A stretch of DNA of 64,000 nt from Poseidonia sp. (GCA_965661285.1 CBFIDD010000002.1:32001-96000); one strand, 5' to 3'. Positions 56,980 to 60,033 are shown, numbered from the stretch's first letter. Notes: generated by a model not told the origin, from the sequence alone. A program made the numbers and translations.

Positions 56980-57429
56980 TCAAGGTCGCCATGTGGCGAC
57001 AGATTTCGGTGTTTCTCGACAGTGCATGGCCACAAGGCGAAGACGGTTGCCATAGGTTGAGGAGATGTGCGGCGCCACTGCATCAAACGCCCATTTCGCA
57101 AGATTTTCTGCCGTCGGGATGAAGGTTACAATCACGGTTCTGTGCCCTTCGCCCATGCACATGCACGCTTTTTTCCCTTCTTCGTCGCCTTCGTAGATGA
57201 CGAACGCATGGTCAATGACATCGTGAACATGTTCCATCAACACCTTGCTGATATCAGAGAAATCCATCAACATCCCTTCGTCAGAAACACCAGAGACCTC
57301 AACCACGTCGCCTTCGATTTCTGCTTCAAACCTGTAACGATGTCCGTGAAGGTGCCTGCATTTTGACTTATGATTTGGCACCCTGTGGCCCGTGTCGGTC
57401 TCTACATAGCGTCGTATTGTGGTCGTCAA
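56980..57429 (-). CDS. queD: 6-carboxy-5,6,7,8-tetrahydropterin synthase
   Basis: GHRV..KCRHLHGHRY, MDF, DH, PTAENLA, ETP; TTGA overlap with queC-msrB. Confidence 0.93.
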   Translation of the reverse strand: MTTTIRRYVETDTGHRVPNHKSKCRHLHGHRYRFEAEIEGDVVEVSGVSDEGMLMDFSDISKVLMEHVHDVIDHAFVIYEGDEEGKKACMCMGEGHRTVIVTFIPTAENLAKWAFDAVAPHISSTYGNRLRLVAMHCRETPKSVATWRP

Positions 57430-58586
57430 TGTTCTTCCTCCTCGTCCAATTCAAACGAAAGTGAAGCGGAGTTGATGCAATAGCGCTCTCCGCCATAAGC
57501 TGCAGGGCCATCGTTGAACACGTGTCCAAGATGGGCATCACAAACACTGCACCTAACCTCAACACGAACCATCCCGTGCGTATAGTCGTCAATTCTGACA
57601 ATATTGGCTTCCCTATGTTCAGTATGGAACGATGGCCAACCGCACCCGGAATCAAATTTCATGGTCGAGGTGAACAAAAGCGTTGAACAGCATATACATC
57701 GATAATCTCCCGCTCGTTTCTCATTCCAATATTCGCCCGTAAATGCACGCTCTGTTCCCGATTGTCTCGTGACATGGTACTGAAGGTCAGTAAGGCGCTC
57801 TTTGTAATCCTCCTCTCGATGACGTCGTTGCGTTTCCAGGGCATCCTCAAGCACCTCGCGCCAGGGTTTGATGTAGTCAATGGGGTCCTGTCTTCCGATG
57901 GCGTGAAAGGCCAATATTCGTTCAACATCCGAGCCTGTACCACCGTGGGAACGCCCATCTGCATCTGGTGCATAGGAGGTAAGCGTCCTCGAAAAGACCT
58001 CATCGAAATCAAGACCTAGGGCGGCGATCGATGTTTCAGCATCTCGCAGAATACCGATTTTATCGCTCTCCAGATAGGGCAGGGTGAACGAAACGCGCTC
58101 ACTCTCCCAATTGCCGATGGCAAAAGCATGCTCCAGGGCCGTGTAAAATTCAGGGCGACAGTCGGGATAGATGGCGTGGTCGCCGCTGTGAACGCCGAGA
58201 ACAATTTCCGCCGTTGTATCGTGTTTGGTGGCCTGTGAGAGTGCAACGCCGTACAAAAGGGAGGAGAACAGGGCATTCCGGTTTGGCACAATGGTTGCTT
58301 TCATGTTCTCCTCTTCATAGTGTCCTTCTGGGACATCTTCGCCACCCTCAAGAAGATGGCTCTCAAACAGAGCAGTGGCCGACGAGAGGTCGGCAACGTG
58401 ATGATTGACATTAAACCCGTTTTCGGCCAAATAGGCCACCAGTGATGTTGCTCTTTCCAGTTCAATCGCGTGTTTTTGCCCGTAATTGAAGGAAATGGCG
58501 GTCACGGTGTAGTTTTCCCGTAGTAAGTGAAGAAGCAAGGAGGAAGAATCCATTCCCCCACTTAAGGCCATGACTGCGAGTTTCAT
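57426..58586 (-). CDS. queC: Fusion: 7-cyano-7-deazaguanine synthase QueC (N) + peptide methionine-R-sulfoxide reductase MsrB (C)
   Basis: SGGMDS, YGQKH..E, VPNRN, YPDCRPEF; then GTERAF, CICC, KFDSGCGWPSF, RVEVRCSVCDAHLGHVFNDGP, RYCINS in one frame. Confidence 0.92.
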   Translation of the reverse strand: MKLAVMALSGGMDSSSLLLHLLRENYTVTAISFNYGQKHAIELERATSLVAYLAENGFNVNHHVADLSSATALFESHLLEGGEDVPEGHYEEENMKATIVPNRNALFSSLLYGVALSQATKHDTTAEIVLGVHSGDHAIYPDCRPEFYTALEHAFAIGNWESERVSFTLPYLESDKIGILRDAETSIAALGLDFDEVFSRTLTSYAPDADGRSHGGTGSDVERILAFHAIGRQDPIDYIKPWREVLEDALETQRRHREEDYKERLTDLQYHVTRQSGTERAFTGEYWNEKRAGDYRCICCSTLLFTSTMKFDSGCGWPSFHTEHREANIVRIDDYTHGMVRVEVRCSVCDAHLGHVFNDGPAAYGGERYCINSASLSFELDEEEEH

Positions 58587-58598
58587 TGTATCATCTCC

Positions 58599-59258
58599 TT
58601 ACAGTATGCCCATCCATTTGTGGGTTTGTAATGACAATCGCCACGCCGGATTGTCCTTTACGACGGCCTCGGTAAGAGCAAAACCCCGCCCGTTTTCCTC
58701 TACTGTGGCTCCTTCATCGTAGCAGGGTTGAAGGAAAAGATGTGAAAAACCGTCCTTAAGGTCATCATACATTGAGAGCGATTGTCCAACATAAACGCAT
58801 TTGAGTTCGTCTCCCACACGTTGTTTAATTGAGACATTGGGGTACATCTGGTCTTTCGGTGAAATGCAAATCCAATCCAATAACCCATCGGGGATGGCTA
58901 CAGTACCGTTTGATTCCACTGAGAGATGGTAATTTTGCAGTTTCAGCATTCGAGCCAACGGCCAGAGGTCGTTGAGCATGGGCTCACCTCCCGTGAAAAT
59001 GATGTTTTTGCACGGGTACTCGTTCACCTTCTCCATGATCTGTTGAGCCGTCATGGCTTCGTATTCATCGAAATTGGTATCGCACCACTCGCAGCGTAGA
59101 TTGCATTTGCCAAACCGAATGAACACATGGGGTATGCCGCTTCGGAACCCTTCGCCTTGAACGGAATGAAAAATCTCGACGATATTGTAAACATAGGAAG
59201 GGTCGCTCTCCCGCACCTCAAGGCGGGGCCGCAGCACAACTTCACTCCTCTCCGGCAC
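58599..59258 (-). CDS. queE: 7-carboxy-7-deazaguanine synthase (radical SAM)
   Basis: EIFHSVQGEG, CNLRCEWCDT, TGGEP, ESNG, SPK, FLQP, WRLSLQTHK. Confidence 0.95.
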   Translation of the reverse strand: MPERSEVVLRPRLEVRESDPSYVYNIVEIFHSVQGEGFRSGIPHVFIRFGKCNLRCEWCDTNFDEYEAMTAQQIMEKVNEYPCKNIIFTGGEPMLNDLWPLARMLKLQNYHLSVESNGTVAIPDGLLDWICISPKDQMYPNVSIKQRVGDELKCVYVGQSLSMYDDLKDGFSHLFLQPCYDEGATVEENGRGFALTEAVVKDNPAWRLSLQTHKWMGIL

Positions 59259-59267
59259 GTTCTCACC

Positions 59268-59843
59268 TCAAAGGGGCGGTTGGTGAATCAATTGCATGAG
59301 CTCTTGTCGAGCTTCGGGGCGTTCAAAGAAGACACCGCGCATCGCAGATGTGGTCATAACAGCCTGTTGCTTTGCCACGCCGCGACATTGCATGCATCCG
59401 TGCGAAGCCTCGAGGATGACGGCTGCACCAAGGGGTTCCAGTTCGCGTTCGAGGTCGTCAGCGATGCCCTTCGTGATTCGTTCCTGATTTTGCAGTCGCC
59501 TGGCGTGCAATTCGAGGATTCGGGCCAATTTGCTAATGCCAACGATCCGCTCAACAGGTATGTAGGCAACGTGAGCGCGCCCTCGGAACGGCTGGAGATG
59601 GTGTTCGCAGGTTGAAGTGAATTCGATGTTGCGAAGCAAGACGATGCCATCATACCCCTCGCCGTTGAAGGTGGCTTGCAGAAGTTCACTGGCGTCCATG
59701 TCGTAGCCAGCGAATATCTCGCTCCACGACTCCACCACTCGCTTAGGGGTGTTTTTCAACCCTTCACGCTCGACATTGTCCGTGCCTTCGATGTAGCCCA
59801 ACAGCACGCGTACTGCCTCATGCGCTTCGTCTTCTGTTACCAT
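59268..59843 (-). CDS. folE: GTP cyclohydrolase I (type IA)
   Basis: REGLKNTPKRV, STCEHHLQPF, GISKLAR, RLQNQER, HGCMQCRG; GGAGGA SD before ATG 59843. Confidence 0.96.
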   Translation of the reverse strand: MVTEDEAHEAVRVLLGYIEGTDNVEREGLKNTPKRVVESWSEIFAGYDMDASELLQATFNGEGYDGIVLLRNIEFTSTCEHHLQPFRGRAHVAYIPVERIVGISKLARILELHARRLQNQERITKGIADDLERELEPLGAAVILEASHGCMQCRGVAKQQAVMTTSAMRGVFFERPEARQELMQLIHQPPL

Positions 59844-59844
59844 C

Positions 59845-60012
59845 TCAAATCCTCCTCCCGTGCATCTTGTCAATGGTGTCCAACTGGTCCAACAACTTTC
59901 GACACGCCGTTCGAATGGCATCTGCAAGACTGACAAACTTGTGGTCATCACCGACATGCAGTTTGAGGTCGTCGACCAATTCTTGTGGCATATCAAGTGA
60001 AACCTTGGGCAT
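59845..60012 (-). CDS. Unannotated 55-aa ribbon-helix-helix (CopG/Arc/MetJ-like) regulator
   Basis: Hand translation MPKVSLDMPQELVDDLKLHVGDDHKFVSLADAIRTACRKLLDQLDTIDKMHGRRI*; alternating beta strand, helix, S-x-x-D-A-I-R-x-A helix; stop lies 1 nt before the folE ATG. Confidence 0.82.
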   Translation of the reverse strand: MPKVSLDMPQELVDDLKLHVGDDHKFVSLADAIRTACRKLLDQLDTIDKMHGRRI

Positions 60013-60033
60013 GATGAGCGCTCACTGAGCATT

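Follow-up and report, generated by a model that had tools for sequence, protein, structure and literature searches.

Archaeal proteins that join an N-terminal adenylation domain to a C-terminal methionine-R-sulfoxide reductase (MsrB) have been catalogued as 'AANH-MSRB', a fusion apparently unique to archaea (Maupin-Furlow, Antioxidants 2018, 7:124; PMC6211008). Table S2 of that review contains 62 AANH (QueC-type)-MsrB proteins, 61 from Euryarchaeota and 1 from Woesearchaeota; the N-terminal domain is modelled on ThiI with the adenylated substrate left open, and a footnote gives it as QueC-type (IPR018317). In its passages on these proteins the review provides no operon context, lineage, evolutionary series or experiments. 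Here we analyse a gene of the same layout, queC::msrB, which lies in an operon for the synthesis of 7-cyano-7-deazaguanine (preQ0) on a 64,000-nucleotide stretch of DNA from Poseidonia sp., order Poseidoniales (GCA_965661285.1 CBFIDD010000002.1:32001-96000; hereafter the window). The conserved cysteines of the published example A0A2D6JNB0 (AANH Cys162, MsrB CysR334 and CysA389) have the same spacing as C143, C315 and C370 of the present protein, the published positions differing from ours by a constant offset of 19. A first-pass annotation of the window knew of no described link between QueC and MsrB; this was mistaken, since the architecture is already known as a kind, although those passages of the review leave it without biochemical characterisation. 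We found no paper on a QueC-MsrB fusion under the names QueC, ExsB, SelR, Msr, Poseidoniales or Marine Group II; the term used in the review is 'AANH'. As an architecture the protein thus adds little to the catalogue, and the contribution lies in its context: the operon, a series of three operon states, signs of at least two fusions, and the joint loss of msrB and msrA.

Each half has relatives of solved structure. Canonical QueC (B. subtilis, 3BL5; Pectobacterium, 2PG3) shares with the N-terminal half the PP-loop ATP-pyrophosphatase fold, the SGGxDS and YPDCR motifs and the queD/queE/folE cluster, whereas the present protein has replaced zinc cysteines, an extra C-terminal helix, an NCBIfam score under the cut-off, and a methionine in the PP-loop where both solved QueCs have glutamine. 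E. coli MsrB (6SYM) and human MsrB3 (6Q9V) are 53-56% identical to the C-terminal half with a root-mean-square deviation (r.m.s.d.) of about 1-2 Å. The zinc-binding two-cysteine MsrBs have the same two CxxC pairs and the catalytic cysteine of RYCINS, and the resolving cysteine in GCGWP is placed as in E. coli MsrB; unlike E. coli MsrB and MsrB3, the MsrB described here is tethered to QueC, its N-terminal helix predicted to be continuous with a QueC helix. MsrB is also fused to another enzyme in the MsrA-MsrB proteins (MsrAB/MsrBA; 3E0M, 7E43, 5FA9), the usual fused form elsewhere in the phylum, but there the partner shares the methionine sulfoxide substrate class, whereas here it belongs to an unrelated pathway and msrA is unlinked. 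QueC is joined to a gene of its own pathway in the QueC-QueD protein P0188, whose partner, unlike MsrB, lies within 7-deazaguanine metabolism. The partner in the GAT-QueC fusions of Crenarchaeota belongs to 7-deazaguanine metabolism as well.

We consider it probable that queC::msrB encodes a bifunctional polypeptide, that it arose when two adjacent preQ0 operon genes, coupled in translation, lost the stop codon that had separated them, and that its halves work independently of each other. The N-terminal half would be a zinc-free QueC that uses ATP and ammonia to turn 7-carboxy-7-deazaguanine into preQ0, the precursor of archaeosine in tRNA. The C-terminal half would be an ordinary zinc-binding two-cysteine MsrB that acts on methionine-R-sulfoxide in proteins as a reductase, with thioredoxin or another thiol reductant regenerating it. 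With the halves acting on unrelated substrates, the fusion would ensure co-expression in equal amounts, with no chemical coupling. The gene and its parts, with the evidence for each, are:

57426..58586, minus strand: fused gene queC::msrB (open reading frame, translation, Pfam QueC and SelR)
57819..58586, minus strand: QueC half, residues 1-256 (Pfam, TIGR00364, alignment with Cys-bearing QueCs, fold match)
57795..57863, minus strand: predicted junction helix, residues 242-264, in which the tail of QueC runs into the N-terminal helix of MsrB (AlphaFold2, junction alignment, contigs crossing)
57429..57815, minus strand: MsrB half, residues 258-386, zinc-binding two-cysteine type (TIGR00357, identity, fold, invariant residues)

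The frame is single and uninterrupted and encodes 386 residues plus a stop, in agreement with the first-pass annotation, which had described it as a QueC followed by an intact MsrB. According to Pfam, QueC (PF06508) covers residues 4-227 (E 2.7e-38; 132 bits against a gathering cut-off of 22), taking in profile positions 2-206 of 210, and SelR (PF01641) covers residues 265-379 (E 5.7e-49; 165 bits against 24.9). The MsrB half also passes the NCBIfam equivalog TIGR00357 with 170.6 bits, the cut-off being 113. All the MsrB motifs that the annotation had picked out are present, namely the zinc pairs C297/C300 and C346/C349, the resolving C315 in G314-C315-G-W-P-S-F320 and the catalytic C370 in R368-Y-C370-I-N-S373; these residues are the same in all 85 fused homologues that were aligned, and the cysteines align with those of solved MsrBs. 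Likewise invariant in the 85 sequences is the QueC PP-loop S9-G-G-M-D-S14, which aligns with sggqds of 2PG3 and 3BL5, and both the PP-loop and the YPDCR motif are common to the solved QueCs. Foldseek superpositions of the MsrB half on 3cez, 3cxk and 6q9v give an r.m.s.d. of about 1.0 Å (TMt 0.81-0.93), and the QueC half matches 3bl5 (TMt 0.76) and 2pg3 (TMt 0.71); none of the Foldseek matches is a solved chain covering both halves. From the invariance of the catalytic residues of either family, and from the family-like folds of both halves, we infer two working enzymes. The genome (1.98 Mb, 93% complete) points the same way: its one SelR domain and its one true QueC are those of queC::msrB, which is flanked by folE, queE and queD, and the TGT gene lies elsewhere.

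Could the fused frame be an artefact of assembly or annotation, that is, the product of a frameshift, an overlooked stop or a chimeric join? Contigs from four runs of four studies, compared over 57300-58700, show neither indels nor joints. Two of them span the entire region (one is near-identical and may be the source of the window's DNA), and two more bridge 57780-57860, where they carry no stop, frameshift or misjoin. The seven substitutions among the contigs comprise four synonymous changes and L3P, V64I and I99V. More than 120 protein clusters drawn from NCBI, ENA, JGI and Logan contain both domains at 73-99% identity; their members are annotated as MsrB or as 7-cyano-7-deazaguanine synthase and come from Poseidonia sp. 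or Candidatus Poseidoniales archaeon. Given these contigs and clusters, and the open fused frame in 39 of 69 high-quality genomes, the chance of an artefact is practically negligible.

The architecture search in relatives, which confirmed that the fusion is not confined to the window, covered 69 Poseidoniales genomes of at least 90% completeness, queried with the MsrB half. They fall into the following groups (g denotes a genus):

msrB fused to queC in an open frame of at least 360 residues: 39 genomes (g1, 10; g17, 19; g15, 2; g25, 1; g7, 5; g5, 2)
msrB as a separate gene: 20 genomes (g19, g8, g18, g2, g10, g24, g6)
msrB truncated where the contig ends, beside queD: 1 genome (G048, g8)
no msrB: 9 genomes (g20, g23, g3, g9, g4, g7, g11)

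The operon therefore occurs in three states, with no msrB, with a separate msrB between queC and queD, or with msrB fused to queC, and this series goes beyond the catalogued architecture. None of the 69 genomes has a second copy of msrB or an msrB away from the preQ0 operon. All 20 separate genes lie directly downstream of queC, between queC and queD, so that msrB directly follows queC in 59 of the 59 genes with a readable upstream side (39 fused, 20 separate). The gene in G048 had been considered as a decayed remnant, which we reject because it simply ends with its contig. In five genomes (89-98% complete) with an msrB-less operon, a search by family revealed no SelR domain in the whole genome. 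The genera g16 and g18 have queC and msrB in one frame with a single stop between them and the msrB start one or two codons further on; they are one mutation away from a fusion. True in-frame junction stops occur only in these two genera: an internal TGA in matches from g17, considered as selenocysteine or as a junction stop, proved to be the terminal stop read through. When the sample is widened to 285 genomes of at least 80% completeness, 252 contain a match; among the matches listed, g16, g21 and g26 also have full-length ones with no stop at the junction, and g5, g12, g15 and g25 show more than one operon state within the genus. The three states, above all the single in-frame stop, and the distribution of never more than one msrB per genome over the four groups support an origin by stop-codon loss. 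The order thus offers a natural series for the merging of operon neighbours in streamlined genomes: msrB absent, msrB as a gene apart, msrB behind an in-frame stop, and msrB fused in either of two ways.

Several points weigh against a merger of two independent enzymes. On the QueC side, the score for the NCBIfam equivalog TIGR00364 is under the cut-off (131 bits against 150.3), and in an alignment with Cys-bearing QueCs the four zinc-ligand cysteines of the canonical enzyme are replaced by S204, H214, T217 and D220. As for msrB, it is found in the order nowhere but in the preQ0 operon, and it appears to have been fused there repeatedly. Two junction types exist: the long type, to which the present protein belongs, retains both the tail of QueC and the N-terminal helix of MsrB, whereas the short type has lost 14 alignment columns, and its QueC helix leads straight into the MsrB core. 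In trees of QueC and MsrB from 48 loci (the redundant g1 loci L011, L013, L015 and L016 were left out), the eight short-type fusions form one clade of MsrB with a support of 100/98, apart from the long-type and separate forms; the long-type fusions and some separate genes are intermixed in a poorly resolved group. Judged from the MsrB tree and the existence of two junction types, fusion took place at least twice, and later fissions are possible. The junction itself, which the first-pass annotation took for a charged linker, is predicted not to be a loose linker: AlphaFold2, run with the 85-sequence alignment (mean pLDDT 90.2), places one continuous helix across it at residues 242-264 (pLDDT about 89-95), in which the C-terminal helix of the QueC subfamily joins the MsrB N-terminal helix. 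A short-type fusion from G049 is predicted in the same way (pLDDT 86.4; continuous helix at residues 241-259). The pTM values of 0.81 for the long and 0.84 for the short type are by themselves no proof of an interface, but together with the continuous helix in both types they suggest a fixed arrangement of the domains in the models, and not beads on a string. An msrB restricted to the operon, repeated fusion and a fixed junction could together reflect selection for physical coupling.

The two departures on the QueC side would also fit an N-terminal domain that is no working QueC at all, but an adenylating (AANH) enzyme that cooperates with MsrB on another substrate, and the main text of the review likewise compares the domain to ThiI and leaves its 'substrate X' open (PMC6211008). 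We regard this as very unlikely. The protein is the only full-length QueC-family member over the Pfam cut-off in a genome that also has folE, queD, queE and TGT; all loci examined have it between queE and queD; in fold it resembles QueC structures; its PP-loop and YPDCR motif are conserved with the solved QueCs; and Table S2 of the same review labels the domain QueC-type. As the organism's only QueC, placed between queE and queD, it almost certainly has 7-carboxy-7-deazaguanine as the 'substrate X' of the archaeal AANH-MsrB proteins, judging by gene content and position.

The lost zinc site is a property of a whole subfamily. Whether or not msrB is present, the cysteines are missing from all Poseidoniales loci examined, as they are from the unfused metagenomic homologues P0126, P0128, P0131, P0125 and P0123; the loss thus predates the fusion and has nothing to do with it. 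The extra C-terminal helix, which begins at W242, is also a trait of this zinc-free subfamily and is present in unfused members. We considered that the zinc module of MsrB might substitute for the lost site of QueC and rejected this, because the cysteines are also gone from eight msrB-less loci and from the unfused homologues. Close homologues of 420-734 residues (P0124, P0127, P0132, P0150, P0160, P0168 and P0174) carry an intein after about QueC residue 140.

Does QueC depend on MsrB? In a functional coupling, MsrB would be held rigidly on QueC (bound to it where the genes are separate) and, in an aerobic archaeon with rhodopsin genes, would keep QueC or the oxygen-sensitive QueE reduced or gate preQ0 synthesis by redox state. 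The adjacency of msrB to queC described above would fit this, the 60th gene being truncated where its contig ends beside queD, as would the repeated fusion with its well-supported short-junction clade and the continuous helix with its pTM values in both types. In addition, the QueC clade has two invariant methionines, M12 in the PP-loop and M95, whose oxidation a docked MsrB might repair or sense, through a rigid helix if fused and in a complex if separate. If physical coupling were real, it would link a tRNA-modification pathway to the oxidative repair of proteins, and a docked MsrB would tie the supply of the archaeosine precursor in sunlit-ocean archaea to oxidative stress. On the other hand, the junction helix is a subfamily trait that unfused members share, the pTM alone is no evidence of an interface, and an operon gene with no sign of its own promoter could stay trapped in place without any functional link. 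Outside the order, none of 20 msrB loci lies near a preQ0 gene.

The genomes without msrB bear on this question. The genes folE, queE, queC and queD are kept without msrB in six high-quality genomes, and in six of six the unlinked msrA is lost too. Over the 69 genomes, 56 have both msrA and msrB, seven have neither, four have msrB only and two have msrA only; the last two have no queC match either, and their operon is probably unassembled. Rhodopsin genes occur in none of the seven genomes without msrA and msrB, compared to 40 of 60 with msrB, a comparison that is descriptive only as the genomes are related. The gene content of these seven suggests lineages that gave up the methionine sulfoxide reductase (Msr) system; the genomes lacking msrA, msrB and rhodopsin are G038, G040, G045, G046, G052, G057 and G194 (g3, g4, g9, g11, g23). 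We also compared six QueC positions over 48 loci, eight without and 40 with msrB. The two sets agree at M12, M95 and C143 and at three of the four zinc sites that are replaced (M12 was readable in six of the eight msrB-less and 27 of the 40 msrB loci; M95, C143, S204 and D220 in all 48).

The loss of msrB together with msrA and the unchanged QueC positions make MsrB look like half of a general, discardable Msr repair system and unlike an accessory that QueC requires; functional coupling is not supported by the evidence. We accordingly consider such coupling unlikely, and its specific form, a docked MsrB acting on M12 and M95, more unlikely still. Both the tracking of the unlinked msrA by msrB and the constancy of the six positions favour a bifunctional protein with independent halves. 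Of the purposes that the first-pass annotation had put forward, plain co-expression is thus the one favoured, whereas protection of QueE or QueC and a redox switch lose ground to the msrB-less operons without msrA and the unchanged QueC.

How far does the architecture extend beyond Poseidoniales? Among the best 150 of 1.84 billion representative proteins, P0122 (65% identity) is the only full-length QueC-SelR protein, accompanied by fragments that span the junction. The other matches in two stretches are intein-bearing QueCs and tandem SelR proteins, and the long matches in a single stretch include the QueC-QueD fusion (P0188) and an HNH-QueC protein (P0137). That QueC has fused with an operon neighbour elsewhere, as in P0188, is consistent with our preferred origin by stop-codon loss between neighbours. 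The phylum was sampled with 201 genomes; 155 of them lie outside the order, and 79 of these 155 have MsrB. Of the outside loci we inspected 20, namely the four of the sister order and those 16 whose open frames reach 298 residues or more, and found no folE, queE, queC or queD within the fetched flanks of any of them. The 16 long frames consist of 13 MsrA/MsrB fusions and three SelR domains alone.

Within the order, the operon as such is well preserved. The order folE-queE-queC-[msrB]-queD is kept in 62 of 65 Poseidoniales loci surveyed by tblastn, two contigs end before queD, and a convergent SpoU methylase gene is usually next after the operon. In L071 (G207, g24) the operon is rearranged, with no queD detectable after msrB and a gap of 1.3 kb separating queE from folE. 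The short junction type occurs in both families (g15 of f1; g5, g7 and g26 of f3), and the QueC sequences do not group by family in their tree. The trees also pair sequences across families or genera, L048 (f1, g15) with L029 (f3, g7) and L050 (g25) with L054 (g12). Viewed from the gene trees, this hints at exchange of the operon within the order.

In the window, the gene order is folE-queE-queC::msrB-queD, tightly packed on the minus strand. The neighbours of the fused gene are:

56980..57429, minus strand: queD, 6-carboxytetrahydropterin synthase (Pfam PTPS; TIGR03367 at 82 bits, under the cut-off of 89)
58599..59258, minus strand: queE, radical-SAM 7-carboxy-7-deazaguanine synthase (Pfam Radical_SAM; NCBIfam queE_Cx14CxxC at 131 bits, under the cut-off of 240)
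59268..59843, minus strand: folE, GTP cyclohydrolase I (Pfam and NCBIfam, over the cut-off)
59845..60012, minus strand: conserved 55-residue open reading frame at the operon head, possible ribbon-helix-helix regulator (tblastx conservation in relatives)

The upstream queE is separated from queC by 12 nt. At the other end, the stop of the fusion, TGA (57428-57426), overlaps the TTG start of queD as TTGA, an overlap that the first-pass annotation had noted and that reads ATGA in most relatives. The true start of folE is most likely, judging by the reading frames of relatives, M64 of the listed 254-residue frame (ATG, 59843-59841). We reject the 63-residue N-terminal extension (59844-60032, minus strand) because in relatives its frame is interrupted by many stops, and because the conserved 55-residue open reading frame, which ends 1 nt before the likely folE start, lies in a different frame. 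In relatives, 47 of 50 tblastx matches to this small frame are without stop codons, and the eight printed matches are 68-96% identical. It has no Pfam match, and its NCBIfam matches to CdrS (E 0.0068) and NikR (E 0.028) are weak and far under the cut-offs; by sequence, it may encode a regulator of the operon.

Elsewhere in the same genome, a fragment of msrA lies at a contig end in an unlinked place. The genome has one archaeosine-type TGT, away from the operon, which sits in an open frame of 745 residues, long for an archaeosine TGT. It also has two rhodopsin genes; the places recorded for TGT and rhodopsin are G000:C1:8375-9349, C3:99248-99952 and C4:173476-174147.

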